A stretch of 64,000 nt of DNA from Trypanosoma brucei (taxonomy: Eukaryota), in contig CP000071.1 of assembly GCA_000002445.1 (NCBI GenBank), forward strand, positions 416,001 to 480,000, in the 5' to 3' direction. The notes beneath the pieces were generated by a model, which did not search any database, was not told where the DNA came from, and was given only the letters and a program-made list of their open reading frames with translations. A program made the translations under genes and the position numbers. Position 1 is the first letter of the stretch. Each line of letters opens with the position of its first letter. Shown here one piece after another: positions 12,242-38,964 of this stretch.

Positions 12242-13072
12242 CTAAGCGGCTTTAGCGGCGGCATCATTTCCAGCAGTGCGAGCACGCTTCTTGCGCAGTT
12301 CAGCGCGAGACCGGAGCGACAGCTGCAGACCTCCCCATTGGCGACGGATAACGTCACTGCGAGCAAGGAAGCGGGCATTCACAGAGCGAGTAAGGTTCTT
12401 CAGCGCAGCCTGGTCCTCCGCGTTGACGTCGGTAAAGGCAACACACGTGGCGGTTTTGCGACCAATCGCATCACCCAGGCGTGCCTTGTCCTTCACGATG
12501 GCGTACGGAATCTTGTTGGCGCGGCACAGAGTCGGCATCCATAACACCAACTCAATAGGATCCACGTTGTTGGCGATGAGCACAAGGCGCGCCGTCTTCT
12601 TTTCAATTGTGCGCGTCACCTCCTGCAGACCACTCACAACGCAGAGAGGGGCTTTCGTTGACACGGTCCCCTTGGGGTTCTTCTTCTTTTCCTCTGCAAC
12701 TTTTGTCAAACGATCCCTACGCGCCTTTCGGGTTTCCGGGGCGTACTTCTTAACCAACTTCAGCAGCTCGTTGCGACTGGAGCGGTCAAGCACCTTTGTG
12801 AATTGGTTCAGCGCCGGGGGTACCTTCAAGCGTCGCTGTAGCACGCGCTTCTTACGCTGCATCGTCACGAACGTGGGCCACCGCATGAATCGTGAAAGGT
12901 CACGAGCATAAGGGACATCACGCCCGATACCAAAATCCTTCGGGCGCGCCACGAAGGGTGATGGTGCTGCAGCAGAAGCCTTTGCCTTTTTCTGGGTAAC
13001 CTCAGGTTTCTTGTACGGGACCCCAGCCTTTTTGGTGGGCTTTACAGCCTTCTTCACCTCCTTGCCGGCCAT
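12242..13072 (-). CDS. RPL7A: 60S ribosomal protein L7a (eL8), copy 1
   Basis: 276 aa. The true ATG is at 13070-13072; the track ORF starts 9 nt upstream on a GTG. It carries the diagnostic L7a/eL8 block (…PKDFGIGRDVPYARDLSRFMRWP…LVLIANNVDPIELVLWMPTLCRANKIPYAIVKDKARLG…) and a Lys/Ala-rich N-terminus. Confidence 0.95.
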   Translation of the reverse strand: MAGKEVKKAVKPTKKAGVPYKKPEVTQKKAKASAAAPSPFVARPKDFGIGRDVPYARDLSRFMRWPTFVTMQRKKRVLQRRLKVPPALNQFTKVLDRSSRNELLKLVKKYAPETRKARRDRLTKVAEEKKKNPKGTVSTKAPLCVVSGLQEVTRTIEKKTARLVLIANNVDPIELVLWMPTLCRANKIPYAIVKDKARLGDAIGRKTATCVAFTDVNAEDQAALKNLTRSVNARFLARSDVIRRQWGGLQLSLRSRAELRKKRARTAGNDAAAKAA

Positions 13073-13327
13073 TTTCTTCACTCACAATCCACTATGTTAA
13101 TTCAATGAAAGGAGAGGCGAAATGGATATTTTTGTCAATGGTCAAGCGAGTGGCACCGCACACTACCTCCTCAGCCAAATTTACACTGCAACAGAAAGTG
13201 GCAGCATCGGATAGATCAGCCCAGCATCACATGTTCAAAGGAAAAAAATAGAAAGTAGCACGTACACACACACAACGTAGTAAATGCCAGAATACAGGAC
13301 AGATGAAAAGCGGCGGGGCACCAACTA

Positions 13328-14158
13328 CTAAGCGGCTTTAGCGGCGGCATCATTTCCAGCAGTGCGAGCACGCTTCTTGCGCAGTTCAGCGCGAGACCGG
13401 AGCGACAGCTGCAGACCTCCCCATTGGCGACGGATAACGTCACTGCGAGCAAGGAAGCGGGCATTCACAGAGCGAGTAAGGTTCTTCAGCGCAGCCTGGT
13501 CCTCCGCGTTGACGTCGGTAAAGGCAACACACGTGGCGGTTTTGCGACCAATCGCATCACCCAGGCGTGCCTTGTCCTTCACGATGGCGTACGGAATCTT
13601 GTTGGCGCGGCACAGAGTCGGCATCCATAACACCAACTCAATAGGATCCACGTTGTTGGCGATGAGCACAAGGCGCGCCGTCTTCTTTTCAATTGTGCGC
13701 GTCACCTCCTGCAGACCACTCACAACGCAGAGAGGGGCTTTCGTTGACACGGTCCCCTTGGGGTTCTTCTTCTTTTCCTCTGCAACTTTTGTCAAACGAT
13801 CCCTACGCGCCTTTCGGGTTTCCGGGGCGTACTTCTTAACCAACTTCAGCAGCTCGTTGCGACTGGAGCGGTCAAGCACCTTTGTGAATTGGTTCAGCGC
13901 CGGGGGTACCTTCAAGCGTCGCTGTAGCACGCGCTTCTTACGCTGCATCGTCACGAACGTGGGCCACCGCATGAATCGTGAAAGGTCACGAGCATAAGGG
14001 ACATCACGCCCGATACCAAAATCCTTCGGGCGCGCCACGAAGGGTGATGGTGCTGCAGCAGAAGCCTTTGCCTTTTTCTGGGTAACCTCAGGTTTCTTGT
14101 ACGGGACCCCAGCCTTTTTGGTGGGCTTTACAGCCTTCTTCACCTCCTTGCCGGCCAT
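13328..14158 (-). CDS. RPL7A: 60S ribosomal protein L7a (eL8), copy 2
   Basis: The 276-aa protein is identical to copy 1. All three frames of the track are identical over the coding sequence, which implies about 100% nucleotide identity. Identity stops at the ATG and at the stop codon. Confidence 0.95.
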   Translation of the reverse strand: MAGKEVKKAVKPTKKAGVPYKKPEVTQKKAKASAAAPSPFVARPKDFGIGRDVPYARDLSRFMRWPTFVTMQRKKRVLQRRLKVPPALNQFTKVLDRSSRNELLKLVKKYAPETRKARRDRLTKVAEEKKKNPKGTVSTKAPLCVVSGLQEVTRTIEKKTARLVLIANNVDPIELVLWMPTLCRANKIPYAIVKDKARLGDAIGRKTATCVAFTDVNAEDQAALKNLTRSVNARFLARSDVIRRQWGGLQLSLRSRAELRKKRARTAGNDAAAKAA

Positions 14159-14514: not shown

Positions 14515-15603
14515 TTAATCACGACCGTTGGGTCTACTAACGATATCCCGCATATTTTGCCCGGGAGATCCGTTGGAAACTAACAACCGTAGGCCACAGT
14601 TTTCTACCTTAGCACTCGCGACATTGTCATCCTTACCCGTGCCATCACCGTTTGTATCACAGCTCCAGAACTGCATCTCCACATCTCTCTCTATCCTCCT
14701 CTTCTCTCGTTCGAGGAAGTATCGGAACACGCGCCGAAAGGCAGATTGCTCACCCTCACCGTAGAGGTCAGCCTCATCGCTGCTAAAACTTAGCGTGTCC
14801 TCGTCAGAAACGAAGTGGGCGTCGTCTCGTGTGCTCCTGTCTGTGCCCCTGCTATGGTTCCTTTGTAGTGAAGAATCTGTTTCAGAGGTTTTGCCGAGGC
14901 TATCGTTAATGGGGAATTTCCCGGTGTGACCGCCACCCCCTCCCCAGGACTCGTTAAACACCTCGTCATTATTATACGATAAACTAAACCCACTCTCGAT
15001 TTCAAGCTTATTGCGCCGTCGCAACTCCTTACGTATGTAGTGCCCCCTCCCCTGCCGCCCAGGCGGGAAAAGACAGAGCTCCTGCGTACTGAGGTTCATG
15101 AATCGTACCACCCCGGAAGTGGTACGACACAATACCCATCCATCAGGTACGTCATCGACCAAAAGCATCTCCTCGATCATGATCAGGAGGTCGTCATCAC
15201 GCGGGGAGCGCAGCCCAACGCTACAGCGAAACTCTGCTATGTCCTCCACCGATAACATGGTGGCGGCACCTCCATCGCCGCATCTGCCTCCCTCCGCGTC
15301 GCTACCGCCGTCACCGTCCTCGTCTCCGTCAACTTCATCCTCGATGCGCGTGATCACCACGCATGGTGGTGGAACATCACACCCTTTCCACCGCCTAAAG
15401 CCAGAAAACTTACGCTCCGCTCGCTTGCGGGCCGCTCGCCGCCATCTTGCTAAGAAGAGCCTCGTGCGTAAAACCGCCGCATACGCTATGAGACATACGC
15501 CACCACCCAGCCAAGGAACCCACTGCGGAACAGTTGACAGCACTGCGCGCCTTGCATCTGAGAGCGTCTCCGCCTCGTAGAGGTCGTGCCACAGTTTCTG
15601 CAT
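14515..15603 (-). CDS. Hypothetical acidic protein with WW-like segment
   Basis: The track ORF starts on a TTG at 15717; the first ATG is at 15601-15603, giving 362 aa. It contains an acidic stretch (DEVDGDEDGDGGSDAEGG). The segment PDGWVLCRTTSGVVRFMNLSTQELCLFPPG follows the WW-domain layout but has lost the second Trp. Confidence 0.55.
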   Translation of the reverse strand: MQKLWHDLYEAETLSDARRAVLSTVPQWVPWLGGGVCLIAYAAVLRTRLFLARWRRAARKRAERKFSGFRRWKGCDVPPPCVVITRIEDEVDGDEDGDGGSDAEGGRCGDGGAATMLSVEDIAEFRCSVGLRSPRDDDLLIMIEEMLLVDDVPDGWVLCRTTSGVVRFMNLSTQELCLFPPGRQGRGHYIRKELRRRNKLEIESGFSLSYNNDEVFNESWGGGGGHTGKFPINDSLGKTSETDSSLQRNHSRGTDRSTRDDAHFVSDEDTLSFSSDEADLYGEGEQSAFRRVFRYFLEREKRRIERDVEMQFWSCDTNGDGTGKDDNVASAKVENCGLRLLVSNGSPGQNMRDIVSRPNGRD

Positions 15604-16136
15604 TACGACAGTGCAGCCGCACCACCCACGGCCCAGTGGAAAGTAGCAGTGACAATATGGGTGCGCAGCTAATAGAAGCGAAAATCGGTGGGAGCTATAA
15701 AGAGGAAAGCAGAACAATGCTCACACAAATCCTCCCCTGTTGTAAATCTAAGAGGTAGCAGGGGAAAAAATCATACAGTTATTGAAGCGATGCGGAAACG
15801 GTTCGAAGAAAAAACAATTAACGAAGACATCTACCAACTTTTATATGCAGATACATGACCACAGCCATGAAAACATCGGCTCCCACACCGAGTCGCCGAT
15901 CATTGACAATAACAGATACGAAAGAAAGATTTGCTATACATATCCGACGGGAAATAATGGAATACCCTCCTTGAGGGAGCCAACCTGAGACAACGATGAA
16001 AGAAAAAAAGAGACAGCAAACGAACGCACGCCCTCATTGTCAAGTTTCACGGCGCCACGACTACGCTCACGAAGCAACGCGTCACAGGCATTCACCACAA
16101 CTATTCAAAAAAAAAAATGAGTCAACCTACCCTCGG

Positions 16137-19100
16137 TCACGATACGGCTATAAAGAACCCCAAGCTGTCACCAAGGGTGTCCACCACAGGACCACTGGAC
16201 GCCAATGCTTTACGCCCACCTCCTCTGCCGCCCAGTGGTCTTTGCCCCACAGATCGCGGGGGTGTCGCGTTTAACTCCGACCGTTCACAAGCCGGTACTG
16301 TGACGTACAGTGGTAGTTCGAATAGGGGCTGCCAAACGCGGCTGGTTGCCTCGTCGGGCTTATCGTCGGGATTCAGGGGGTGACTCACAGCCCACTGTAG
16401 ATCTAGTCCAACCACCGGCACAGTGGCGACGGACCGTTTTACCACGTCGCAAACCTGAGGGGGTTCAGGTTCTGTCAAGAAAAGAACGCTATTACACATC
16501 GCACTGCCCTCCTGGCGTGGCTCAGAGCCCTTCTTCCCTGAACGCAGGTCCCACAGTACGCCACTCGGCTGTCGCGAAGGACAGTCTGTAAAATCGCTCT
16601 GATACCGAACGGCGATAACGATATCCATATCATGCTTGCTGGCACCTACCTCCTTGTTCCATCTCATTTCACATGGCTTCCAACCGGCCTGTATCGATAC
16701 CTCCCGCTCCAATTGCCGCGAGGGCGCAGCACCAGTGAGGAGGACGTCGTCGTGAAGGAGCATGTAGCGCCGTGTCACTACCAAAACCGCCTCAATGTGG
16801 CTCAGCAAATCACCCTTCCGCTCCAACGCATCTGCCAAGAGTATATTGAGCAGGAGCTTTGGATACTGCAACGCAGGCAGCCATACACTGAGAACGGACC
16901 CGGGCTGCCATCCCCTGAACTGCGCTGTCGCAACTCGCAGCCGTGAGGATAACTCTTTGTGCTGGGCGCGTTCCAATGCCCTGACAGTTTTCTCTCCATA
17001 GACCCCCTCCCACACAAGCAGTAACGATACAGCCGAATTTGACTCAAAGTCTTCATGGGGCTCCGTTTGAGAAGCACCATCTACCCCACCCTGTGAGCAT
17101 AATGGTCCATCTGAGGTGCTAAACAGCGGATCAGCCCTCGTAGAGAAAGGAACACCACAAAGGCTTCTCCGCAAGGCACTACTTGCCATGCTTCGGTATG
17201 TCACAATCGTGTGGTCGTCTCCACAAAGATGGAGGAAACTTTTGTCGGAACGACGCAGAGTCGCCATGAAGACCTCATCAGTTGGCTTCTCCCTGAGAAG
17301 CTCGTCCAGTGCAGTGCTGTAGCACAAACGCCCGTCATCCCTCAGCATCAACAGGGGACCACGCTCGTACAGCATGTTTTCAATTAGCAAACAACCTTGA
17401 TGTCTTTCGCTTCGAGATGTGTACACGAGGTAGGCCACTTTATTAAAGAGACGGTACAGCCGCTCACTAATTGACCTCCTCTGCAAGGTTGCGCTCTTCA
17501 GCTCCGTACTTGACACAGTGTGGGTTGCGGCGTGTAAAGTAGTGGATGGGTGCCTCTTGGATGACGGCTCCTCCTCCTGTGGGTCATCTAGCTGTTTGAG
17601 CGAAACGAGACGCAGGATGAGAAGAAGATCATCAGTGTTGATGTCCGTCCGATACAAATCAGTGAATACGTTGTCAAGTCCCCTATCCTCCACAAGAGCA
17701 CGCTGGACAGCACCCCCAGCACTGATTCCGGCGTGTAGCTCGAGGACATAGCCCAACGGCGTAACCATGGTGTTGCCCCGGTCGCCTCTCTTGCACGAGT
17801 CCAAATGACTGCAACTGACCCCCGATTTGGTACATTCCCTCTCAAGAAGAAGTGTCACACCCTCTCTTTTCCACGGTGGAGCAAACACCTTCCCCCCAAT
17901 GACGGAAAGCAACTGGTGCCGCGGTGACACCGAATCCACTACTACGGGAAAGCACCACTCCTGCATGGCGCGAACCACGTTATTCCGTACCATATTAGGG
18001 GCGCCCCTAACAGTGCAACACAGTACAACAGGTGTGCGTGTCGAGTGGCCACCACCCCGGAGTAGACCCCATATCCCGTACCGCCATAAGGCAGAGAACC
18101 TGCTTGAAATTGCTTGCAGGAATGACGCCTCCTCAGACACGCCAGCTGGCGGCACAAACACGGCCATAACGCAGTGGCCACGCACAACGTGGGTAGGAGG
18201 TTGTTGAAATGAATGACTGACATAACCCACAAGCTGATCCAAGTCCCTTACATTGGTTACGGTGAGGTACCGAAAGAAGAAACTAGCCGAGTTCGCACGC
18301 TGCCTAACATAACCGACCAATTCATGTGTGTTGGCTCCCTTCAGAAGCAATGGAATCGATGTGTTCCCGGAAAACTGCCACCATTCTTCACTATACCGCA
18401 GATTAGTGCACTGACTGTCAAGGGAGTCGTATATGGACAAACCCCCCTCTTCCGTGACTTTCTTCTTCACCGATGTGAAAAACGCGGCATAGAGGTCAGA
18501 AGCAGCCGCATCGCATGCCCTGTGGTTCAGCAACATCCACTGTTGAAAAAGGAAACGGATTAATTCTTCACCAGCTTTCAACACCCATGAAGTATTTGTA
18601 TCCTTAACGAAGAGCGTGCTCTCCAAACTCAGACCGCTCTCGGTGTCATCAAGCGTGGAGTTATCACGGGCAATACTATTTAGCAACGGGTCCATTGATG
18701 ATTCGTACAGGTTCCTTACTGTCTGCTTATCAGCAGCAATATTTTGCCGAGTGAGCAGCCGGTTCAGTACATCGTATTGTTGGGAAGTGAGAAAGGTGAT
18801 GTGGGAAGAATACAGCACACCCGAGTGAGCCAACATAAAGCCGCAGCTGTGCACCACGGTGGACAGAATATACCATGCGAAGATGCCACGCAGTTCCATG
18901 GGCCAGCCGGAAGCCATCACATCCACAAGGCTCTCAACGAAGTTTACCGTTGCATAAAAGTCTCTCTGTGGTGGTGGTAGCTTGTCAAAAGTTCCAGGTG
19001 ATATGCGACGCACGTAGGCACTCGACAAGTTTGTTGCACCCACAATGAACGGTTCCAGCATGCGCCATTCCCACAACCTTCCTAATATCTCTTTCTCTAT

Positions 19101-22100
19101 GACACGTACAGCCCGCTCCGCCGCTTGAATCCCCCGTTTAAGTCCCTCCCACAAAGAGGCCAGTGGTTTTTGCACGCTTTTGTTGTGCGCCTCGATGCGT
19201 AGCACAGTCATGTGGAGGGTGTGCAACTCGCGAAGAAGGAAATCAAGTCGTTCGAGCTCGCCGTTGTTGTTCCCAGCCAGCTCGTCAAGGTCACCGCTTA
19301 ACATCTCTCTGACCTCTGGTAGCGTTACACGAAAGGCACAGAGTGCGTCATTGTCTTGCTTGTCGCGCACACTAAAGACATTCTCCACCAATGGTCTTGC
19401 GTACGCCGTCGGGCACCCTAAGAGTATCGTGTGAACTCCCTCCTCTATCCGACGCGGACTGGGAATGTTGACGACCGTAGTGTAGCAACGCGTGGCAGCC
19501 TTAGCTTCTTCGTGTAGCATAACCGCAGGAGAAACACAAACCATGAGAAAACTGGGCTTTACAGGCACTTCCTGCCCAAATAGTGTGCACCTCAAGTTAC
19601 GCTTTTGCAGCGCCGCCTGCGGTAACGCCTTCAGCAACAACAGTAGAGGTCGCAAACGCTCCAGCACAGAAGGGGCATGCACGTCACATATGAGTAGACC
19701 GATCCCCGAACTAGCTGCCCTAACCACCTCGTCGCAGAAGTCCTTCTGCATTACGGAAACAACGACGCAGTCACCGCAGATGAACGCCAGACAGCGGCCC
19801 AAAACCTCTTCAAAAACGTTTGTTACACCGCAAAAGATCGGGCAGTTGGAAAAGATCTTCTGGAGCAATCCTGCGATGCATTGTCGTTCATAGGTAGAAC
19901 ATGCCGATAGAAGCAAACTTTCGACCGTCTCGTCGACGCTAGGAAACAGCAGTGAAGCTGCGGGGTCCTCCAAATCCGCCGGGGCCTGGATACCCCAATC
20001 ACAAAGAAGTGAGTACAGAGCTTTGTGGCAGGACCGTTGCACCTCAAGTGGTAAAGAGGCAAAAAACGCAAAATGAGCAGCAACCATAATAACGGCACCC
20101 TCACCCTTTGCCATCTCGTTGCACTGCGCCGCAGTTTTGCCTGGTGTATGGAACAAGGAAAACCTATCCAGAGCGTCCGTTATAAATTCAAGGGATTTTT
20201 GGCGCTTCGTCATATCCACTACCGTCGTTTCTAGGCCCTGGCTCTTCTCATCTACGTTGTTAACTTCCTGTTCAACACATTCAATTTTCCTTCTGGACTC
20301 GGAGACGCCACACCCCGCTTCGTTCTTTCTATCTTCAATAGTTGTGTACTCAAGACGCAAGCTGTCTAATTCCATCTGTTCAATCTGCAGCTCCTTCTTC
20401 ACCCGCACAGCCTCCATGACGGACAAAAGGTAATCCGACAAAGCATCAGCAAAGGGTGAAACATCGGTAAACCGTACACCGCGCAACGAGGAATGGACAC
20501 TCGCAAGGGACTCGTACGACAAACTCTCATGATCCAAATCTCGGAGCCGGGCGATAAATTTGGATGCTGTCATGATGCTTCTACCGCGGTCCCACACATC
20601 TCTTGTCGACGTTGCACGAAGATCCTCCCCCAACACCCTACAGACAGCCTTTACAAGCAACACGCCCTTGGGCGAAGGCAAGCTGCTTGCATATTGCCTG
20701 ATCTGCGCCGTCTTCATTGAACACAAACGAGCTTTTGTAGAGGAAAGACCATCGCTGATACTTTCCCTCTTTAGGCGAAGCGCGTTTTCCGCCGCGGTCA
20801 CCAGCGGCAACAAGTCACATGACTTCCTCTGCAAAAATTCCCACTCACTCTGATGCCGTGTGGCGCACTCCTTGGACCTCTCCAACCTAGCCACCAGCTC
20901 CCCACGGTGCTGGACAACGGTCACCTTCGTCTCCTCCGCCTCTTTACTTTTGTTGGCGTACTCCTGCATTTTTGTGGGAATGGCGTTGAACAGATCGTCA
21001 ACTCTAAGGGACTGAGAGACACAATGGCATATCCTAAACAAAGTCCCTCTAAGACGGTTAGCTAGTGTGGCGAACTCCTGCAACTGCTCAACAGAAATCT
21101 CGGTGTTTGTTCGTAGACAAAAAAATATGTCACATAGAAGCTGAGAGTAGGGACGTCCCAGTAGCGTCTCCGTATCCATAGGAACTCCCAAAAAGCAGGG
21201 TATGGACTCCACAGGTGCATCCTTTCCACAACCTTCTCCCCCTGGCGGTACATCCGCACTTTCGGCCCTCCCCGTTTCTGGTACGACAAATGTCGCCTTC
21301 TCGCTGCGGATCACCACATCGACATGTTCTCTCAGCATATCCGGGGCGTGCAGCACCACGGGAAGCATTTGCAGTACGAAAGGAATCACAGTGCCCAGAC
21401 GCCTCATTTCCTCAAAGCTAACAAAATGTGCTACAATACTCAAACGGGAGGAAATGCGTTCCCGCAACTGCACCTCTTCCGCAGGAGTGAGTTTCCCACT
21501 TTGGCGTTGTATGCCCCGCCGTCCGTGTAATAGGTACAGCTGCTCTTCAACAGAAAACAGTTGCCTAACATTACCACCGCGCAGTGTGTAATAAAGAAGA
21601 CTCAGTGGCCAAACCAGTGTTAGCACCTCATTAGGAACAAACACCACCATGCGACTCCCGCTACGGCAGGTGCCTTGCAGGATTTCAATGAGTTCTCGAG
21701 TAAACGAATTCTTCGCATCCGGAGCAGCAAAATCAGACAGCAATGACCTCAAGTTCACGCCCCTTCCGGCGGCCCACACGTGCAGTGCTCGACGGATGCC
21801 GATGCCGTAGGCCCCAACAAGAGCAACATGAGAGCCTTCCTGTCTCAAACAATGGTGCACATCTGATATCAACGAAACCGTCCAATGTGGGGTACAATTC
21901 ACATGCGGCGCCCCCCCAACGGCTGCCTGTTGCTGTGCCTCCTTTGTGGACGGCGATTCCATACGCGACTTGCCCGTCGATATATAAGGGGATTCACTAC
22001 GGATCTCATCGACAAGGGCAGGCGGCATCATCACGTCGTGCTTCTCCAGCCATTTCCTGATGACGTCGTGTCCCACAGATGGATACTCAAGGCTGTTCAA

Positions 22101-25100
22101 CACCTCAGTTACGTAGGTTTCGTCAGCACCCTCGCGCTGGCGTGCGCCAGGGGAGTACCGCATGGTCTCCTTCGCCATCTTAAGAAGCTCAGCCATTAAC
22201 TCTTCTCGGCGGCCTTCGCCAGCAATAAGAGGCATGAAAAACGTGTAAACCGAATGGTATATACCCTTTACGATACTCGCCTCATCTAACTGAGTGGAAA
22301 GAATACGCAACACCTTGTCCACAACCCTGAGAAGAACGTAAGGATAGGGTAACTGTGATTGATTGTCGGCCCTGTCATCAGAAAAACTCAGGAGAGACGT
22401 GTCTTCGAATGCACAAATCCCCTCGATGCTCGCCAGTGTACTCTTCAGCCGATCTAAACCCGAGTGGTTGTCCCCGAGCAGCGAATTTATGAAGTGGAAA
22501 GCCATACTCTGCGAGGCAATGAGAAAGTCGCCCACGCCCTTCAAAAACCCCTCTCCGCGCCGTACGCCCCTTGTTTTGCCAATAAGTTTCTCCACTTCAT
22601 GCAGTATTTCATCCTCAATAAAATCTGGTATCATTATCCGAAGGACGCTGTTTTCCACCTCAGGTTCGTGAGGCGGTGTCGGTAACGAGGTTCCTACACA
22701 TATAACATCCTTTATGGGCACGTAGCCCTTTGACGGTGTGCACAGAGCAGAGTAGTGGTCAATGAAAGCGAAGACACACATGGCTTGGGGATATCCCATT
22801 TCTCCAACGAGGTGGACATCATCAACACATAGCACTAACCTCTGCCCAGATGAAGGTACATATGTGTTGTGTTGGGAGCGAGAAAGACCCTGAAGCAATG
22901 CATCCTGTACATCTCCAGCGGTGCACGCTACCGTGTTGTGAACCAACTCATATGCCCACCGGCTGCTACACCGCATGTGATTTAAGAGAGTCGACTTCCC
23001 CTGACCCCGCTCCCCCACAAGCAGAACTGGCTGGCCCACCGCGGCCATATATTCTAAGTGCATTAGCGTCCGCTGTCGTGAACGCAAGGGGAAAAAGTAC
23101 GTCCACGCGTGTTGTTTAAAGTTTACACCCGGATCCCTGGACGCCCACGGGGTAGGAAACCCAACATCACTAGCCTCCTTGCCCAATTTCTTCCACCCAA
23201 ATGGTGTCGCAATATAGTTCAAAAGGTCGTCGTCTGGTGGAAATATAACATTCTCATCCACACCTATATGCTGTGCCACAGCTGTTAGGCCACTTTGCGA
23301 CTTCTTAAACGCAACAATACCCGTAGAGATTTCGCTTACTTGCATGCATAACATAACCGACCAGCAGGTCGCAAAAACAGCGCACTGAGATGCGAAAACA
23401 TCATCGCTTGAATGTTCGCCCTCCGCCTTGCCACACGATCGCGCAAACGCATACCATCGCTTGTAAAACCTGGAGCAGCGGCACACAACGCCGAACACAT
23501 CTTCGTCTAAACTAGAAATCCTTGGCACTGCGCTCACGTCGAGCACAGCCTCGATAAGTGCCGATATTACAGGGAATGCCGCGCCTGGGCTACAGTTCGG
23601 ATCGCTGTAGAGTTCATTTTTTAGCAAATCCTTCCATCCAGACGGCTCCGGCAGGGCATATATAGCCACCTCACTCACTATACGTGGATTGGCAGATTCT
23701 AAGGTAGTAACCACAGTGATAATGCGTGTTGACGAACCTTGTATAAAATCCGGTCCAGAGTACGACCGGACTCTTACATGCGCTGCGCTCTCCAAAAAAG
23801 TGGGTACATCCACCACGTTCGTGTGTTCCATCACAATCGTATGAGTCGATATCGGGTCCCACTTCCTAGCAATGGAAACAAGTAAACCAGGTCGGGATTC
23901 GTCGCCATACACTTCCGCCGAGCATAGAAGCCGGTGGGAAAGGACAATATAGTGCGTGTCCCCGACCCAACTCTTCCACAACGGGGTCTTCCCGGAATAT
24001 GCAGACCCCACGAGCATGGCGTTTTTGTTGAATTTCATGAAGTAGGTAAAACGTTCCAAACAACTATCGAACCCCAACTTTGACTTGAACTTCTCCAATA
24101 CCTCCTCCAAGACGTGTCGCGGGATCCCAAGTGTGTGAACAACGTTCCACTCGAAGAGTTTCAGCAGTCGCTCGTCCGACTCAATAACGTGCCAAAACTG
24201 CCGCAAAAATGCCGAGCACAGACTTTCAGCCATTGTCCCCGTTTTGCAGTCAGCAGCGTCTCGAATTACCGACAAGAAACTCCTGCACGTGAAGACAGCA
24301 GGCAACATCGCAACAAACTGGGAAAACATTGTGGCCAGTCTTTGCCCAATACTTGCGAAATGAGGCACCCCAAGTGCCTGGAGCGTACCCTGGGCGAGCA
24401 ACCCTAGGTCCACAGAAGGTACATAAATCGGTCGAAAGGCAAGACTGAGAGCGGTGGGTATTTCATCGAGCTCACGTGTTGTGAGAACAACATGAAAGCA
24501 CGCATCCCTGATGGCACATATAGAATTATCGCCTGCCTGAAACTCTACCGTTGACATACCACCGTCATTGTGTCTCTTTTCATTGCGACATGCTGACTCA
24601 ACACCTTTGAGAAGCGCTGAGACTGAATCGGCTAACTCCCTGCCCAGAAGTTCAATGTCCTTTAGGCACAATATCACTCCCGCGCCCAAGCAACCACGTA
24701 AGGCACGCACAATGCCCTCGAATGGCAGAGTCGGATGGCATTGGAGGAACCAACAGAAGCGGCCCAAGTACTGTGCATAATATTCTAGCTCCGAGTTTTC
24801 GTTGTTCTTCCCGATAAGAATAGGGAAGGAAGATGCTCTTATCGACATAAGCATGCTGCACAATCCCTTCTCAACATACTCAGGAGTCAAAATGGGAATG
24901 TTATAGTCTCCAAAAAACTCCATACCGTAGGGTAACTGAAGGCCCATCATCTGTACAACAATTTTTCCGCCTTCCAGCAACGTTTGCACCATCGCTGTGG
25001 CTTTAAGATCCTCCAGCGTTTCAACACCGGATTTGCTGACCAGTCGCAGTTCATCCCGGTACCGTAAGAGAGAGGTAATGGCAGTACTAAGGATTCTCTG

Positions 25101-28100
25101 AACTCTGGCACCTAAGGTATCATCAGCAAGTCGTACATATTCTTCCAAAACATCTTTTGAACGGCGGGTATATGCGTTCATGCCTGCCGTGCCAGCAACA
25201 GAAACAGCCTCCCGCAGGTCATGGTGACAGATTGTGCGAAGAGCTACATCGATCACCTGTACACATGAATCACCCAACCAAACCAAGGTATCCATGCGGT
25301 AATGATTTTCCACCGACATTTTTATTTCGTTGAGAAGTGAGGAACGTAACGTTCTGTCAAACGTTTTCATCCATTGTTCAACAGGTAGAGGTGATAACTC
25401 AATGGGGGTGTCCGTTCTAAGCACAGAACCATCAGTAGTAATAAACGACGTCACAACATTTCCCTCCAGATTAACGTCACAAACCCTGCTGTACAATGTT
25501 GTAAGGTGGCGCTTCAGTTTTGTTGCGTTGTGAACGGACAAGAACGACAACAACGACTCATCATCCATGAGATAAAAACGTGGGAACACCTCCCGCTTCG
25601 CGTCAAGTGAAGATGCAAGAATTTTTCGAACATCACCTAAAATTGTACGAGCCAAAGTGACCTGGTCTTGTATATTCTCCTGCATCATGGCCGTAAAAAG
25701 AGTGTACTGAGCTTTCCGCAAAGTCGCTGCCAGTGACTTGAAAGTATCACTAGTAGATGACACCTTCTCACGCAATAATTTTAGGTCTCGAGGAGTGAGT
25801 CCTATAAAATCCTCGTCCGTTGTGGTTTCAAGGGTTATTCCAAACGGTAGCACCTCCTTCCACTCTTTCTCGACGTCCTCCCACGTTAGTAATGTCTCCT
25901 TCATTCGTTGCACAACAGAATCGAACTCCATTACGGAACTTATGGTATACTGACTAAGATGTTCAACTTGACGTAAAGCACTTAACTCGTGTGAGAATGC
26001 TTCCAGCTGTGAAGATATCGAGGTCCTGCATCTCGGCGAAAGAATGAGGGCATCATTGGATCCCTCGGCAACTTCAAAGACAAAGCGTGTTTTCTTCGCG
26101 TCACTCTTCATGCGCTCCAAAGTAGCTTCCGCCTCAAAATCTAAAAAAGCGGGGTCTACAATTAGTTTTATCTCGTCAAGGTGATCAATGATACCATTCT
26201 CAAGTAATTGCTTTAGTGTGACGTTAGAATCAATCTGAGTCGACTGCTTTCTGCCAAGCTGGAGAATCCTCCCTATCTCCTTCCAGTGATTTTTCCGCAA
26301 GCCAGGTGTTGATAAGTATGCCAAAAGAGTCTGCAGAGACTCGAAGTCTGCCAACACCTGTTCTTGTTGCCTCCCTAGACACACTAAACCCGGATATCCC
26401 CGTAGATTCCGAACTGAGGAATGAAGGAGCCTTCTGCATCGCTGGACTTCATCGATAGTTTTCTCACTGTTCAGGGCACTGAGAGGAATTATATAGTAAT
26501 CCTTGACCCGAGTCGAATCAAAAACGCTGCACCAAAACTGTTCCAGAACGTCAAAAACACGCAACACGGGATGTACGTCATCAAATGTCTCGACAGTTTC
26601 GAGACCAAGTGACTTTTCGCAATAAAAGACGTGGTCAATTCCCTTGACGACGTCGTCAACAATAACTCGCAGCTCCTCACATGTTTGCGCACATATGTCA
26701 CAAACATCAACACTGAGAAGTCCCAATAACTCAATCACACCATTACGGACCACAGTTATTTTACCATGCAAGTCATTGCGGTACTCAACTAACTGAACAA
26801 CCAAAGCAGGCTTCCTCTCAGCGCAAGCCTTCTTCGCATTATTTGTTAACACGAGAAGCTCGTTGGGACATCGCATGAGCTCTGCTGCTACTTCATACAG
26901 TTGAGAATCTGCTGGTATGAGAAGCTTTTCTAAGTAACTAAAGAACTCGATAGCCCTTCTGCAATCGCCTGCCTCTATCTGCTTTGATAAATGTTCTGCA
27001 TATGTAATATCAGATTGCAATTTCTCCAGCTCCTCAACACTGTTTGGAATTACCGATAACTGATCGTTGTAACTACGGCATTTCTCCAATGATGAGCGTA
27101 TGAAAGACAAAATGTCTTTCTGAACCATGTTCAAAAAGCTTTTCAAGTAAGAAGACCATTGTTTTACGTACCATTTCTTCACATCAGTGCAGTTAATAGC
27201 AATGCAGCCGCAAAACACCACATCAGGTGATATTTTCCCCACTTCTAATATGGTATCGCGAAGCAAATTCACATTGCTTACAACTTCTTCCTCCGAGCAT
27301 TTGGTGAAGCACACTCCGTTTAGTGTCGGCATACGAGCAAACATCGAGTACTTCTCCGTTAAGTCCTCAACTACGGTACATGCTGCTCCTAGGTACCTTA
27401 TTAGGGTTGCTTTTCCTGGAAAGCTGTCGTCGTCAAACAAATTTAGGGAGTGTCTCTCAAACTGAATCGTTCGCATAATAACAGTTTCCGGAGTAGGAAG
27501 GTTGTTTGCGCTGTCGAGTAATTCGTCCAGCAGATCAGCGATACCAAAATGAAGTTGAGCGAACGATGGAGAACTTGGTAAACCACAACCACCAACGACA
27601 AAATACACCTCAATAAGGGACATTTTCCGTGCCTTCAACGGTGTCACTATACGATCCCCACCAGTAGCGAAGAATGATACTAAATCATCAATTGCATCGG
27701 ATATAAGAATCCTGATACGGTTGGTTAAAAATATACGTACCATCAAAAATACACGCCACAGTTCACTCTCTTTTAAATCATTCAAATCCATCGACAAAAG
27801 CGTACCTGCCTCGGGGATCGTGGTAAATAAAAGTTGTTCCACCTCCGTATAGAACTCAATCCTTATTCTGGTGAACGCCGCCCTCATAGAACATCCCAGC
27901 TGAGAAAGGAAATCATCCGCGTCTGTTCGCCAGTTGAAGGTAGTTGTGTTGAAAACAGCAAGCCTCTCAAAACGATCCGACCACAAGTGGTGTAACCTCA
28001 CAAAAAAATCATTTTTCCCCTCAGACCATATAAGCGAGTGTTTTAGACAATAAAGGGACTCGTTAAATGCTAAAAATCCCCCGTGGTCAGAGCCGTCATC

Positions 28101-28811
28101 CCGTCCATTGTCTTCTTCGAATCTTTTGATATCTTCATTGCGACAAACGAGGCGCAAGGGTGCCATTATCCTGCGGAAAAGGGAATTGAGATTCATATAA
28201 TCATAAATAGCTTCGACACAAACCCTAATATACACCTGTTCAATCTCTTTCATTGTCCTCTCAACAACATCCCGATGGTCAGCAGTTGTTCCTTGAGTTG
28301 CTAATATGACTATTCGTCTCAAACAACCCGTTTCATGAGTTATACATCCTTTGGCTACATTCTCATATAAATCAATGAGCAATGATGTCCTAAAATCACG
28401 GCCACTTTTACCGGAGGTGCACAAAGCCTCCTCGCTAATCCCAACAGGAACTCGAACCGAACGTCTCTGCGATTGTAACTGTGACACTTGAATGTACTGC
28501 CTCTTTCCATCATAACAAAATGTTCCCACATATGGTGAGTAATGACAACCTATTCTCGAGCTAGGAGATGATGATGCCTTCTTCCATGAGCAAATCGCGT
28601 CGAAAAGATCGCTCTCCTTGAACTCAGGGAAGTGAAGAACTTCGGTTCGTCCCGTGTAGTCGGGTGCTATGCCAAAGGAACCGAAGCCAAAAGTCTCACC
28701 AAACCCTGCATCCGTGGCAACAGTGATAAATGGTCGCGGAATACCATCTAGAAAATAGGCAAGGACCTTTTCAAAACGAATCTGTCCACCACAATCCCGC
28801 CTGTAATTCAT
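16137..28811 (-). CDS. Giant 4,224-aa protein with serial P-loop NTPase motifs; possibly a divergent dynein-heavy-chain-like or AAA+ protein
   Basis: A single 12.7 kb open frame. The track start is a TTG at 28820; the first ATG is at 28809-28811. Walker-A-like motifs occur about 350 aa apart (GSAYSGKT, then VGERGQGKST, then a degenerate VGAYGIGIRR). The N-terminal ~1,300 aa and the C-terminal half are predicted helical. The canonical dynein AAA1 motif GPAGTGKT is absent, so the dynein assignment is tentative. Confidence 0.9.
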   Translation of the reverse strand: MNYRRDCGGQIRFEKVLAYFLDGIPRPFITVATDAGFGETFGFGSFGIAPDYTGRTEVLHFPEFKESDLFDAICSWKKASSSPSSRIGCHYSPYVGTFCYDGKRQYIQVSQLQSQRRSVRVPVGISEEALCTSGKSGRDFRTSLLIDLYENVAKGCITHETGCLRRIVILATQGTTADHRDVVERTMKEIEQVYIRVCVEAIYDYMNLNSLFRRIMAPLRLVCRNEDIKRFEEDNGRDDGSDHGGFLAFNESLYCLKHSLIWSEGKNDFFVRLHHLWSDRFERLAVFNTTTFNWRTDADDFLSQLGCSMRAAFTRIRIEFYTEVEQLLFTTIPEAGTLLSMDLNDLKESELWRVFLMVRIFLTNRIRILISDAIDDLVSFFATGGDRIVTPLKARKMSLIEVYFVVGGCGLPSSPSFAQLHFGIADLLDELLDSANNLPTPETVIMRTIQFERHSLNLFDDDSFPGKATLIRYLGAACTVVEDLTEKYSMFARMPTLNGVCFTKCSEEEVVSNVNLLRDTILEVGKISPDVVFCGCIAINCTDVKKWYVKQWSSYLKSFLNMVQKDILSFIRSSLEKCRSYNDQLSVIPNSVEELEKLQSDITYAEHLSKQIEAGDCRRAIEFFSYLEKLLIPADSQLYEVAAELMRCPNELLVLTNNAKKACAERKPALVVQLVEYRNDLHGKITVVRNGVIELLGLLSVDVCDICAQTCEELRVIVDDVVKGIDHVFYCEKSLGLETVETFDDVHPVLRVFDVLEQFWCSVFDSTRVKDYYIIPLSALNSEKTIDEVQRCRRLLHSSVRNLRGYPGLVCLGRQQEQVLADFESLQTLLAYLSTPGLRKNHWKEIGRILQLGRKQSTQIDSNVTLKQLLENGIIDHLDEIKLIVDPAFLDFEAEATLERMKSDAKKTRFVFEVAEGSNDALILSPRCRTSISSQLEAFSHELSALRQVEHLSQYTISSVMEFDSVVQRMKETLLTWEDVEKEWKEVLPFGITLETTTDEDFIGLTPRDLKLLREKVSSTSDTFKSLAATLRKAQYTLFTAMMQENIQDQVTLARTILGDVRKILASSLDAKREVFPRFYLMDDESLLSFLSVHNATKLKRHLTTLYSRVCDVNLEGNVVTSFITTDGSVLRTDTPIELSPLPVEQWMKTFDRTLRSSLLNEIKMSVENHYRMDTLVWLGDSCVQVIDVALRTICHHDLREAVSVAGTAGMNAYTRRSKDVLEEYVRLADDTLGARVQRILSTAITSLLRYRDELRLVSKSGVETLEDLKATAMVQTLLEGGKIVVQMMGLQLPYGMEFFGDYNIPILTPEYVEKGLCSMLMSIRASSFPILIGKNNENSELEYYAQYLGRFCWFLQCHPTLPFEGIVRALRGCLGAGVILCLKDIELLGRELADSVSALLKGVESACRNEKRHNDGGMSTVEFQAGDNSICAIRDACFHVVLTTRELDEIPTALSLAFRPIYVPSVDLGLLAQGTLQALGVPHFASIGQRLATMFSQFVAMLPAVFTCRSFLSVIRDAADCKTGTMAESLCSAFLRQFWHVIESDERLLKLFEWNVVHTLGIPRHVLEEVLEKFKSKLGFDSCLERFTYFMKFNKNAMLVGSAYSGKTPLWKSWVGDTHYIVLSHRLLCSAEVYGDESRPGLLVSIARKWDPISTHTIVMEHTNVVDVPTFLESAAHVRVRSYSGPDFIQGSSTRIITVVTTLESANPRIVSEVAIYALPEPSGWKDLLKNELYSDPNCSPGAAFPVISALIEAVLDVSAVPRISSLDEDVFGVVCRCSRFYKRWYAFARSCGKAEGEHSSDDVFASQCAVFATCWSVMLCMQVSEISTGIVAFKKSQSGLTAVAQHIGVDENVIFPPDDDLLNYIATPFGWKKLGKEASDVGFPTPWASRDPGVNFKQHAWTYFFPLRSRQRTLMHLEYMAAVGQPVLLVGERGQGKSTLLNHMRCSSRWAYELVHNTVACTAGDVQDALLQGLSRSQHNTYVPSSGQRLVLCVDDVHLVGEMGYPQAMCVFAFIDHYSALCTPSKGYVPIKDVICVGTSLPTPPHEPEVENSVLRIMIPDFIEDEILHEVEKLIGKTRGVRRGEGFLKGVGDFLIASQSMAFHFINSLLGDNHSGLDRLKSTLASIEGICAFEDTSLLSFSDDRADNQSQLPYPYVLLRVVDKVLRILSTQLDEASIVKGIYHSVYTFFMPLIAGEGRREELMAELLKMAKETMRYSPGARQREGADETYVTEVLNSLEYPSVGHDVIRKWLEKHDVMMPPALVDEIRSESPYISTGKSRMESPSTKEAQQQAAVGGAPHVNCTPHWTVSLISDVHHCLRQEGSHVALVGAYGIGIRRALHVWAAGRGVNLRSLLSDFAAPDAKNSFTRELIEILQGTCRSGSRMVVFVPNEVLTLVWPLSLLYYTLRGGNVRQLFSVEEQLYLLHGRRGIQRQSGKLTPAEEVQLRERISSRLSIVAHFVSFEEMRRLGTVIPFVLQMLPVVLHAPDMLREHVDVVIRSEKATFVVPETGRAESADVPPGGEGCGKDAPVESIPCFLGVPMDTETLLGRPYSQLLCDIFFCLRTNTEISVEQLQEFATLANRLRGTLFRICHCVSQSLRVDDLFNAIPTKMQEYANKSKEAEETKVTVVQHRGELVARLERSKECATRHQSEWEFLQRKSCDLLPLVTAAENALRLKRESISDGLSSTKARLCSMKTAQIRQYASSLPSPKGVLLVKAVCRVLGEDLRATSTRDVWDRGRSIMTASKFIARLRDLDHESLSYESLASVHSSLRGVRFTDVSPFADALSDYLLSVMEAVRVKKELQIEQMELDSLRLEYTTIEDRKNEAGCGVSESRRKIECVEQEVNNVDEKSQGLETTVVDMTKRQKSLEFITDALDRFSLFHTPGKTAAQCNEMAKGEGAVIMVAAHFAFFASLPLEVQRSCHKALYSLLCDWGIQAPADLEDPAASLLFPSVDETVESLLLSACSTYERQCIAGLLQKIFSNCPIFCGVTNVFEEVLGRCLAFICGDCVVVSVMQKDFCDEVVRAASSGIGLLICDVHAPSVLERLRPLLLLLKALPQAALQKRNLRCTLFGQEVPVKPSFLMVCVSPAVMLHEEAKAATRCYTTVVNIPSPRRIEEGVHTILLGCPTAYARPLVENVFSVRDKQDNDALCAFRVTLPEVREMLSGDLDELAGNNNGELERLDFLLRELHTLHMTVLRIEAHNKSVQKPLASLWEGLKRGIQAAERAVRVIEKEILGRLWEWRMLEPFIVGATNLSSAYVRRISPGTFDKLPPPQRDFYATVNFVESLVDVMASGWPMELRGIFAWYILSTVVHSCGFMLAHSGVLYSSHITFLTSQQYDVLNRLLTRQNIAADKQTVRNLYESSMDPLLNSIARDNSTLDDTESGLSLESTLFVKDTNTSWVLKAGEELIRFLFQQWMLLNHRACDAAASDLYAAFFTSVKKKVTEEGGLSIYDSLDSQCTNLRYSEEWWQFSGNTSIPLLLKGANTHELVGYVRQRANSASFFFRYLTVTNVRDLDQLVGYVSHSFQQPPTHVVRGHCVMAVFVPPAGVSEEASFLQAISSRFSALWRYGIWGLLRGGGHSTRTPVVLCCTVRGAPNMVRNNVVRAMQEWCFPVVVDSVSPRHQLLSVIGGKVFAPPWKREGVTLLLERECTKSGVSCSHLDSCKRGDRGNTMVTPLGYVLELHAGISAGGAVQRALVEDRGLDNVFTDLYRTDINTDDLLLILRLVSLKQLDDPQEEEPSSKRHPSTTLHAATHTVSSTELKSATLQRRSISERLYRLFNKVAYLVYTSRSERHQGCLLIENMLYERGPLLMLRDDGRLCYSTALDELLREKPTDEVFMATLRRSDKSFLHLCGDDHTIVTYRSMASSALRRSLCGVPFSTRADPLFSTSDGPLCSQGGVDGASQTEPHEDFESNSAVSLLLVWEGVYGEKTVRALERAQHKELSSRLRVATAQFRGWQPGSVLSVWLPALQYPKLLLNILLADALERKGDLLSHIEAVLVVTRRYMLLHDDVLLTGAAPSRQLEREVSIQAGWKPCEMRWNKEVGASKHDMDIVIAVRYQSDFTDCPSRQPSGVLWDLRSGKKGSEPRQEGSAMCNSVLFLTEPEPPQVCDVVKRSVATVPVVGLDLQWAVSHPLNPDDKPDEATSRVWQPLFELPLYVTVPACERSELNATPPRSVGQRPLGGRGGGRKALASSGPVVDTLGDSLGFFIAVS

Positions 28812-29050
28812 ACTATACAATCCCCTTATAACTTATGAATACTAGAACCCTCCACAAAAATAATAATTAATTCAAAAAAAAATACGGGTGCCCGCCGCGA
28901 TGGGGTTACAAACCGAAGTACTCCAAGGAAGACCGTTCGTTCAAGGAAACACGTGGAACGTTAATACGTTATGAACGAACATACAAGTCTAAACCAACGG
29001 TCAGAACGCAGTTGAGATTTGTCGTATAACAAAAGAGAGTAAAAGAAACA

Positions 29051-29512
29051 TTAGCTCCGTAGCTTGTTGAAGTCGAATCTGTGCTCAGCGCCTTGTTTCA
29101 ACTGCTCAGTTACGAACTGTAACCACGCAAGCTGGTTAACTCCCTCCTCGCAGTGGTGCGCGCTGATTCGCTTTAGTTCGTACTCATAGTCCTCCATCAT
29201 CGTGCAAATACGACTGCGCATGAGCATCCCGCGACATGTGTACAGTATTCCATAGAGCACAACACCCATACTAATAGCAGGGGGGAGGGGCCGTGTGTAG
29301 TAGACACTGTTCTTAAATATGTGACGTGGACCCCAGAGTCTGAACACCAGCATAACACTGGACGTTGTGAAGGTTACGCACCCCACAAGATAATACCACG
29401 CCCTGCTCTGATGACGGGCCAACTGTTCCACCCGGTCGGCAACGTGGTGCCTCTGGCTTTGGGAAATCTCCGTAACATACTGTGAAAACTCCTGACCAAC
29501 CTTGGACGACAT
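29051..29512 (-). CDS. Small two-TM membrane protein, hypothetical
   Basis: The track ORF (29051-29572) starts on a GTG. Its first 20 codons are a pure pyrimidine tract on the coding strand (TTTTCTTCTTTCTTTCTTTCTACCTTTCTTTCTTTCAG) ending in AG, followed 2 nt later by an ATG at 29510-29512. I read this as a trans-splice signal, not as protein. From that ATG the protein is 153 aa with two hydrophobic helices (AWYYLVGCVTFTTSSVMLVF, ISMGVVLYGILYTC). Confidence 0.5.
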   Translation of the reverse strand: MSSKVGQEFSQYVTEISQSQRHHVADRVEQLARHQSRAWYYLVGCVTFTTSSVMLVFRLWGPRHIFKNSVYYTRPLPPAISMGVVLYGILYTCRGMLMRSRICTMMEDYEYELKRISAHHCEEGVNQLAWLQFVTEQLKQGAEHRFDFNKLRS

Positions 29513-30030
29513 TACTGAAAGAAAGAAAGGTAGAAAGAAAGAAAGAAGAAAATGCATCAAACCGGGCGACACACACAGTAGCGGAGATCAATCCCACGCG
29601 GGGAACCTCCTCGTTTTCAGGAGTCATACCATCACGCGAGGGGGTGCCCCGTATCGAGCCGGACCCCAAAGGGAAACTCGGAAATGCTGCGGAGGAAGCC
29701 AGGGACTCCGGGGTCCGCGGAGTCTGGACACCGTCGCCGACAGCCGAGTCTTCCACTACGGGCAAGACGACGGCGACCCCTACCACCGGCAGCCGCACCG
29801 CGCCGGCGATACAGTTGCGCGCTCACAGCACCACTGTAGGGGTGCCTCGCCCGTGTAGCCACAACCAGAGAGAAAGGGCAGCGGGGAGCCGACACAACTG
29901 CAGAAGGCTCTCGTCGTCAGAAAGTTCAACAGTGAAATGTAGAAGTGCCTTCTCTCTTCTCTTCTTGTAGCCGTTCAATCCAAGGAATAGTAAGGGCACA
30001 AGGCACATTTTAGTTGGAGCGCGAAATAGC
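29513..30030. promoter_or_regulatory. Compact divergent strand-switch region (head-to-head gene pair), candidate bidirectional RNA pol II start
   Basis: A minus-strand ATG at 29512 and a plus-strand ATG at 30031 face away from each other across ~520 bp of GC-rich sequence. A CT-rich tract with AG (29948-29969) lies upstream of the plus gene, and the minus gene has the pyrimidine/AG signal described in the previous feature. Confidence 0.4.
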
Positions 30031-38844: not shown

Positions 38845-38964
38845 GAGAGTACAACACCCCGGGTTCCAGCGCCATCACTGATCGCCGTACTAACGAGGCC
38901 TGTGGCCGCTTAACTTCACAAATCGGACGGGATATGGTGCATTCGGCCAAGTATGGTCGTACCC
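38845..38964 (-). rRNA. 5S: 5S ribosomal RNA, copy 2
   Basis: Identical to copy 1 at a +735 offset; the landmark 'agagtacaac' is verified at 38846-38855. Confidence 0.9.

Follow-up and report, generated by a model that had tools for sequence, protein, structure and literature searches.

To our knowledge, AAA1 is the ATP site that drives all known dyneins. ATP hydrolysis at AAA1 is required for dynein motility, and ATP binding at this site triggers release from the microtubule (10.1101/152645). Beyond the nine canonical classes, Kollmar (2016; PMC5100056) lists 75 unclassified dynein heavy chains (DHCs) in addition to classes 10-17, including human DNHD1 (class 11, reported as metazoan-specific) and Chlamydomonas DHC12/pcr4, whose tail is IAD-4-like; Bodo saltans is in the species key of the tail tree that includes these orphans. 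Trypanosomatids possess two intraflagellar transport dyneins, DHC2.1 and DHC2.2, which are demonstrated motors and have kept all typical dynein domains, including the AAA modules, the microtubule-binding domain (MTBD), and the C-terminal signature (PMC4148251). Here we analyze a dynein-like gene in a 64,000-nucleotide stretch of Trypanosoma brucei DNA (assembly GCA_000002445.1, contig CP000071.1, positions 416,001 to 480,000; hereafter the window). The encoded protein has the layout of a DHC, and its alignments indicate that the AAA1 and AAA4 nucleotide sites are dead, which suggests that it probably tethers microtubules instead of working as a motor.

The gene is a single open reading frame (ORF) on the minus strand, with its ATG at 28811 and its stop codon at 16137-16139. 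The complete coding sequence (16137..28811) comprises 12,675 nt, or 19.8% of the window, and encodes 4,224 amino acids (aa) plus the stop. An earlier note, made from the DNA sequence alone, had reported a 4,224-aa ORF carrying three P-loop-like motifs and occupying 20% of the window, and this ORF was indeed found. The protein is 100% identical to RHW71028.1 of T. brucei equiperdum, and shares one 90%-identity cluster with XP_846972.1 of strain TREU927 (UniProt Q57VL9, chromosome 8) and with T. b. gambiense and T. equiperdum proteins. Database names for the Q57VL9 cluster are "hypothetical protein, conserved" in GenBank and, by automatic annotation, "Dynein heavy chain" in UniProt.

The ORF is a complete, collinear DHC with an inner-arm-type tail, a linker, AAA1 to AAA5, and a stalk bearing an MTBD. 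Pfam recognizes three domains only, namely DHC_N2 (PF08393, E=4.4e-48, aa 752-1165), AAA_6 (E=3.6e-8), and AAA_7 (E=3.4e-11). PDB sequence searches returned DHCs exclusively (67 of 67 matches), via the linker and AAA1, with DNAH1 as the top match. When an alignment of 11 kinetoplastid orthologues was compared with 12 canonical dyneins profile to profile, aa 32-4206 aligned collinearly with residues 32-4043 of DNAH3 (E=2e-94). Since strong parts could carry a global alignment, the family alignment was cut into domains and each was tested alone by hhalign. The linker (99.9%, E=4e-33), AAA1 (97.9%), AAA2 (97%), AAA3 (98%), AAA4 (93%), the stalk (97.9%, E=4e-13), and AAA5 (73%, in the AAA_9 region) were each recovered at their cognate positions. 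By contrast, neither AAA6 nor the C-terminal domain gave a significant hhalign signal or a Pfam match to Dynein_C or AAA_lid_11.

All domain coordinates that follow are on the minus strand of the window. The N-terminal tail (aa 1-750, 26562..28811) is supported by AlphaFold2 (AF2) and Foldseek, and by hhalign for aa 400-750 (74%). It is followed by the linker (aa 751-1250, 25062..26561), identified by Pfam and hhalign and 54-56% identical within Trypanosoma, and by the AAA1 module (aa 1280-1595, 24027..24974), identified by Pfam AAA_6 and hhalign, in which the fold framework is kept while the catalytic site is destroyed. The AAA2 (aa 1596-1895, 23127..24026), AAA3 (aa 1896-2290, 21942..23126), and AAA4 (aa 2300-2595, 21027..21914) modules precede the stalk (20037..21026), which consists of a first coiled coil (aa 2596-2695), the MTBD (aa 2696-2815, 20367-20726), and a second coiled coil (aa 2816-2925). 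Both coiled coils are of normal length, and no stretch of the protein is aligned with more confidence than the MTBD (8-9 per residue). The earlier note had described the ORF as dynein-like and highly divergent, which agrees with the linker match, the collinear alignment, and the stalk with its MTBD. Of the six-AAA ring plus stalk that it envisaged, the stalk and AAA1 to AAA5 (73-98%) were found, and AAA6 was without a sequence signal. Its estimate of about 1,300 aa for the N-terminal tail is roughly right as a total, made up of a tail proper of about 750 aa and a linker of about 500 aa, with AAA1 starting at about aa 1280; this length is normal for a single-headed inner-arm dynein rather than short, as the note had put it.

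The region beyond the stalk is less well defined. The AAA5 module (aa 2926-3400, 18612..20036) rests on the hhalign match and on an AF2 model with a predicted local distance difference test (pLDDT) of 70-90 for aa ~3225-3400. AAA6 is probably present at aa 3401-3850 (17262..18611), as the model places a five-stranded alpha/beta domain at aa ~3484-3625 (pLDDT 75-92), where the large subdomain of AAA6 is expected. The model as a whole (aa 3025-4224) has a mean pLDDT of 54, with values of 70-92 over aa ~3225-3625 and below 50 beyond aa ~3630. Foldseek gave 72 significant matches to this model, all of them dynein motors; the test is not independent, as the input alignment included canonical dyneins. 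The C-terminal region (aa 3851-4224, 16140..17261) carries a family-invariant motif, VWLPALQxPxL (VWLPALQYPKLLL at aa 3976-3988, 16848-16886), whose alignment to the motif of canonical Dynein_C (FWISGFFFPQAFLT / FWISGFFFPQAFL) is weak.

We next consider the nucleotide sites. The three motifs quoted in the earlier note are GSAYSGKT at aa 1602-1609 (23985-24008), GERGQGKST at aa 1933-1941 (22989-23015), and the degenerate GAYGIGIR at aa 2333-2340 (21792-21815). Their spacings, 331 and 400 aa, fit its figure of about 350 aa, and GPAGTGKT is absent from the protein, as it had stated. The first two motifs are strict P-loops of the form G....GK[ST]; two such loops were observed where 5,000 shufflings of the protein sequence give an expectation of 0.07 (P about 0.003). 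In the alignment, the two loops coincide exactly with those of AAA2 and AAA3 in canonical dyneins. The module register implied by the earlier note consequently has to be shifted: the three P-loops belong to AAA2, AAA3, and AAA4, and a dead AAA1 lies upstream of them.

The AAA1 module is located about 270 aa upstream of the first P-loop. The remnant of its Walker A motif (aa 1331-1352, ILIGKNNENSELEYYAQYLGRF, 24756..24821) aligns to canonical GPAGTGKTETTKDLAKALGK, and that of its Walker B motif (aa 1382-1389, CLKDIELL, 24645..24668) to canonical CFDEFNRI, so that ILIGKNNENS stands in place of GPAGTGKT and LKDIEL in place of FDEFNR. The corresponding Leishmania sequences are LVRASDE... and MNCE. 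No AAA1 P-loop was found in the alignments of any trypanosomatid orthologue, and the catalytic Asp-Glu pair of Walker B is also lost, while the framework around the lost motifs (LGRF...C, LRG...G) is conserved. In AAA4, the P-loop lysine and the acidic residues of Walker B are lost in all aligned orthologues. Judged by these residues, AAA1 and AAA4 are dead in trypanosomatid orthologues.

AAA2 and AAA3 present a different picture. In an alignment of 12 sequences from kinetoplastids and diplonemids, from which T. vivax was left out, G1607 and K1608 of AAA2 and K1939, T1941, D1997, and D1998 of AAA3 are invariant. Exceptions in the AAA2 P-loop are GSAFSKAT in T. vivax and GKM instead of GKT in T. 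theileri and T. melophagium; because of these altered loops, nucleotide binding by AAA2 may not be essential in every species. The AAA3 Walker B motif (CVDDVHL, aa 1995-2001, 22809-22829) is of the "DD" type also found in canonical axonemal dyneins. Downstream of this motif AAA3 is poorly conserved, as is the AAA4 arginine expected to complete the AAA3 site, and the sensor and arginine-finger positions align poorly. These features suggest that AAA3 probably binds nucleotide and that hydrolysis there is doubtful.

Several lines of evidence point to a single-headed inner-arm dynein as the ancestor, with the DNAH1/DHC2 and DNAH3/7/12 types nearest. For the proteins of T. brucei, Diplonema, and Apiculatamorpha alike, the PDB searches ranked DNAH1 and Chlamydomonas DHC2 (inner-arm dynein d) first, in alignments that reach into the tail, and DNAH12, DNAH7, and DNAH3 followed close behind. 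A wide family profile scored DNAH3 at 830 bits and DNAH1 at 790, compared with 560-620 for two-headed axonemal dyneins and 520-580 for cytoplasmic ones. In a crude neighbor-joining tree, the nearest neighbors of the family clade were DNAH7-like (IAD-3) and DHC2/DNAH1-like (IAD-4) sequences. The predicted fold agrees. With family sequences alone in the input alignment, AF2 modeled aa 1-800 at a mean pLDDT of 77.8, with 80-94 over aa 260-800, and folded aa ~260-800 into helical bundles like those of single-headed inner-arm dynein tails. In Foldseek, the 23 best matches of this model (E 2e-14 to 1e-7, template-modeling (TM) scores 0.32-0.53) were without exception heavy chains of single-headed inner-arm dyneins in axoneme structures solved in situ, and cytoplasmic dynein tails came next with TM scores of about 0.2. 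The tail gave no Pfam match to the DHC_N1 dimerization region (PF08385). Within the family, conservation extends to the N-terminal ~260 aa, which had no detectable counterpart in other proteins by hhalign or AF2. As a separate observation on the PDB, several DHCs of 4,000-4,700 residues in entry 9fqr carry unrelated names ("putative malate dehydrogenase 1B", "Radial spoke head protein 9 homolog", and "Cilia and flagella associated protein 57"); the molecule names in this entry look shifted and are not to be trusted.

To define the family, we performed an exhaustive HMMER search with a linker-AAA2 profile against 1.84 billion representatives. Members were detected in Trypanosoma, Leishmania, Leptomonas, Strigomonas, Angomonas, and further assemblies, followed by a "dynein-like protein" of Bodo saltans (592 bits) and environmental sequences (617-392 bits) and then, after a step to about 248 bits, by the prokinetoplastid Apiculatamorpha and the diplonemids Diplonema papillatum and Artemidia. 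The family is thus not specific to kinetoplastids, contrary to what the earlier note had suggested. Searches by k-mers with family profiles yielded no further members, and candidates there were tied to the words of the query. A 387-aa sequence from a metagenome-assembled genome labeled "Flavobacteriaceae bacterium" (MDP2060001.1, on a 1,195-bp contig) scored 208 bits against the family profile over the linker and AAA1; almost certainly, this is a piece of a eukaryotic dynein that was wrongly assigned to a bacterial bin.

The neighbor-joining tree was computed from 694 columns and 77 taxa with gamma distances and 200 bootstraps, a crude method that is open to long-branch effects. It supported the trypanosomatids (199/200), their union with Bodo and the environmental sequences (199/200), and the further union with the prokinetoplastid and the diplonemids (200/200). 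Diplonemids branch first, then the prokinetoplastid, then bodonids and trypanosomatids. Because this order mirrors the accepted species tree, we infer a single paralogue inherited vertically, and by its sequences this lineage is old and common to kinetoplastids and diplonemids.

The same series displays a graded decay of AAA1. Compared with the canonical Walker A GPAGTGKT and Walker B FDEFNR, the motifs are GPPCSGKT and FDAV in Diplonema, GPTGVGKT and LDGI in Artemidia, and GPINTGKS and LHNI in Apiculatamorpha. Two environmental examples have GSWGVGKT and GRHGSGKS with "ED" at Walker B, Bodo has GIGKRQ and "DD", Trypanosoma has no Walker A and "KD" at Walker B, and Leishmania has neither motif. 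The catalytic glutamate is gone already in the deepest family members, and nucleotide binding by AAA1 appears, from these motifs, to have been lost later. None of the less-eroded relatives had a Pfam match to the AAA6 or C-terminal models.

Orthologues share 41-48% identity within Trypanosoma and 28-29% with Leishmania, and despite this divergence the ORF is intact in every trypanosomatid examined. Conservation is highest in the tail, linker, and AAA1, with the linker best conserved, and lowest in the coiled coils and AAA6. Comparison with the T. b. gambiense allele revealed 36 synonymous and 25 non-synonymous differences, which corresponds to a ratio of non-synonymous to synonymous substitution rates (dN/dS) of 0.21. 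The gene is under purifying selection, and the presumption of the earlier note that it is functional is borne out to that extent. Leishmania orthologues, at 4,700-4,900 aa, are 470-700 aa longer than those of Trypanosoma, with insertions in AAA3 (about 100 aa), the putative AAA6 (about 240 aa), and the C-terminal region (about 130 aa).

Given that motility and microtubule release depend on ATP at AAA1, which is lost here, the protein should be unable to undergo the power-stroke cycle of dyneins, and ATP-driven, minus-end-directed force generation is predicted to be absent. In cytoplasmic dynein, AAA1 Walker mutants are immotile and stay bound to microtubules. We propose, with modest confidence, that the protein is a pseudo-motor derived from an inner-arm dynein that acts as an ATP-independent microtubule tether, most likely in the flagellum. 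Its tail would dock on a cargo microtubule or axonemal site in the manner of an inner-arm dynein tail, and its MTBD would hold a neighboring microtubule in a constitutive, largely ATP-insensitive, "rigor-like" state of high affinity. The nucleotide of AAA2 and AAA3 would be a cofactor for structure or regulation and not the fuel, making the protein a static or load-bearing crosslink or a regulator instead of a force generator. Within the flagellum, the site may be sub-stoichiometric, doublet-specific, or regionally restricted and hence lost when 96-nm repeats are averaged; an asymmetric or sub-stoichiometric site of this kind would reconcile the inner-arm tail with absence from the averaged maps. 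The earlier note had suggested a motor or scaffold; the scaffold half is better supported, and the motor half is unlikely with AAA1 dead.

A number of observations weigh against a flagellar tether. None of the chains in 9e5c, the 96-nm repeat of T. brucei, is the T. brucei protein, and 9y6s, the 96-nm repeat of Leishmania tarentolae, likewise lacks the orthologue of that species; in both, the best matches (E>=1e-24) do not amount to identity. The published inventory of 9y6s gives gene IDs for all heavy chains, and none of these maps to the syntenic locus on chromosome 7. Structure therefore lends no support to an axonemal site, and the protein may quite possibly act outside the axoneme. The literature search found no report of localization, expression, phenotype, or biochemistry for the protein. 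Rigor-like binding is extrapolated, by analogy, from AAA1 mutants of cytoplasmic dynein. A purely static role leaves the high conservation of the linker and the dead AAA1 unexplained; together with the retained Walker A and B motifs of AAA3, this conservation could mean that some nucleotide-driven conformational change survives. Finally, AAA6 and the C-terminal domain are not demonstrated, as the AF2 model is poor there and its input alignment contained canonical dyneins.

A serious alternative, which we regard as somewhat unlikely, is that the same pseudo-dynein tether operates outside the axoneme, on a non-axonemal microtubule array such as the subpellicular corset, the microtubule quartet of the flagellum attachment zone, or basal-body-associated microtubules. 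In favor of this reading, neither 96-nm repeat model from trypanosomatids contains the protein, nor does the inventory published for one of the two. Kinetoplastids and diplonemids share a subpellicular microtubule corset, and the distribution of the family matches that of corset-bearing organisms. The family-specific N-terminal ~260 aa, which have no counterpart in canonical inner-arm tails, also count in its favor. However, aa ~260-800 of the tail have an inner-arm-like fold, the closest relatives are all axonemal, and absence from averaged maps is weak evidence, since such maps miss asymmetric components. Moreover, orphan dyneins with axonemal-type tails are considered likely to be axonemal (Kollmar, 2016; PMC5100056).

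It is distinctly less probable that the protein represents an AAA1-free, dynein-derived device in either of two specific forms, a nucleotide-gated latch driven from AAA3 or a permanent "rigor" bridge. We find it improbable, too, that it is still an ATP-driven machine whose mechanochemical cycle has moved to AAA3 and drives changes in the linker or stalk. AAA3 is the only site in which Walker A and B are both kept, its K1939, T1941, and D1997-D1998 are invariant family-wide along with the GK of AAA2, and the linker, which is the lever of dyneins, is the best-conserved region. The AAA3 Walker B motif, however, is a "DD" that lacks the catalytic glutamate, which is normal for axonemal dyneins, where AAA3 is regulatory. 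AAA3 past Walker B and the AAA4 arginine are poorly conserved, and we know of no dynein that moves without AAA1 hydrolysis. Because the linker and the dead AAA1 are so highly conserved, a switch driven from AAA3 keeps a low probability.

Less credible still is a regulator or assembly decoy that tethers nothing and either pairs with an active heavy chain or sequesters actin, p28, and centrin light chains during pre-assembly. An inner-arm-type tail and absence from mature axonemal repeat models would suit such a role, yet a decoy would need neither a 3,400-aa ring nor a well-conserved MTBD, nor AAA2 and AAA3 pockets kept since the kinetoplastid-diplonemid ancestor. The very fast divergence, the lost catalytic motifs, and the eroded AAA6 and C-terminus might suggest a decaying, functionless relic or "ghost gene", but a pseudogene is effectively refuted by the 12.7-kb ORF that is uninterrupted in every trypanosomatid examined and by the low dN/dS, and it sits poorly with the many invariant residues over the whole length, C-terminus included, and with a clade older than the kinetoplastid-diplonemid split. 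A midasin (Rea1)-like or other AAA+ scaffold with isolated P-loops, for which only the recognition by Pfam of three of about a dozen dynein domains could speak, is already refuted by the linker (E=4e-48), the end-to-end collinearity, the stalk and MTBD between AAA4 and AAA5, and sequence and fold matches that are all dyneins, with no midasin-type match in the Pfam or PDB searches.

Turning to the surroundings of the gene, its neighbors encode a mitochondrial carrier, two copies of ribosomal protein L7a, an F-box protein, Tsr1, and an acyl-CoA dehydrogenase, and this context gave no functional clue, as expected for kinetoplastid polycistrons. The L7a copies lie in tandem on the minus strand (12242-13081 and 13328-14158) with equal scores to Pfam L7Ae, and are identified in the literature as Tb927.8.1330 and Tb927.8.1340. 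Because these genes are two genes away, the dynein-like gene is most likely Tb927.8.1350 or 1360, and less likely 1310 or 1320. The locus is syntenic with Leishmania chromosome 7, where the counterpart can be bracketed, by inference, as LmxM.07.0480/0490. None of these candidate IDs (Tb927.8.1350/1360, 1310/1320, or LmxM.07.0480/0490) appeared in the main texts covered by the literature search. Directly downstream of the gene is a 400-aa ORF (14515-15717, minus strand) without a Pfam match. On its other side, a divergent strand-switch region spans about 28812-30030, with large ORFs on the minus strand to the left and on the plus strand to the right and a flip in the sign of the GC skew at about 30 kb, which makes the dynein-like gene the first of its polycistronic unit. 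Farther away, eight 5S rRNA genes form a tandem array on the minus strand (38111-43379, 89.1 bits each, period about 736 bp), and the short ORFs listed within this array are repeat artifacts.

That the gene exists is already on record in databases. Our literature search found no description of the combination of dead AAA1 and AAA4 with conserved AAA2, AAA3, and MTBD, nor of the kinetoplastid-diplonemid distribution or the graded decay of AAA1. A natural dynein, kept by selection, that lacks the AAA1 and AAA4 sites and retains AAA2, AAA3, linker, and MTBD shows the machine minus its engine, and the series of diplonemid, prokinetoplastid, bodonid, and trypanosomatid sequences supplies evolutionary intermediates. 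If the latch or rigor-bridge reading is true, the graded series from diplonemids to Leishmania records a motor becoming a structural protein, and a rigor bridge could be a doublet-specific inter-doublet bridge in the trypanosome flagellum or form crosslinks of the subpellicular corset. The protein is an uncharacterized, 480-kDa candidate microtubule-associated protein conserved across all trypanosomatids, including human pathogens. Since it does not appear in the current atomic inventories of the flagellum, it may mark a structure, asymmetric or outside the axoneme, that is hidden by averaging. The automatic name "Dynein heavy chain" implies a motor, whereas the residues at AAA1 and AAA4 argue otherwise.

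Among known dyneins, the closest in architecture and size (about 4,000-4,300 aa) are IAD-4 (human DNAH1, Chlamydomonas DHC2, inner-arm dynein d) and IAD-3 (DNAH3, DNAH7, DNAH12). The T. brucei protein shares with them a tail without DHC_N1, the closest predicted fold, the nearest sequences, and the "DD" Walker B of AAA3. It differs from both in that Walker A and B of AAA1 and the P-loop of AAA4 are destroyed, AAA6 and the C-terminal domain are unrecognizable by sequence, and the N-terminal ~260 aa are family-specific. Unlike them, it does not occupy a position in the 96-nm repeats solved for T. brucei and Leishmania, and unlike the DNAH3 template, its MTBD lacks a short insert.

Two other systems offer partial parallels. 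Like the engineered AAA1 Walker A/B "rigor" mutants of cytoplasmic dynein, the protein has lost the AAA1 ATP site and kept the stalk and MTBD intact, a likeness that is a functional analogy only. In contrast to those laboratory point mutants, it is a natural, selected protein that has also lost AAA4 and remodeled AAA6 and the C-terminus. Like DHC2.1 and DHC2.2, one of which lacks DHC_N1, it is a lineage-specific DHC paralogue of trypanosomatids (PMC4148251). These two, however, belong to the cytoplasmic dynein 2 class, which by family profile scores is not close to the dynein-like protein.

The orphan heavy chains of Kollmar (PMC5100056) provide the best comparison. Like them, the family consists of genuine DHC homologues with divergent motors and tails resembling one of nine canonical classes, and is taxonomically restricted. 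As for DNHD1, the named match lists contained no match of that name, and no DNHD1 sequence was compared directly. The main text of that study describes neither the stepwise decay of AAA1, nor retained AAA2 and AAA3 sites, nor a distribution across kinetoplastids and diplonemids, and these features set the family apart from what is reported there. With its divergent motor and canonical-type tail, the dynein-like protein of T. brucei is best filed with these orphan heavy chains.

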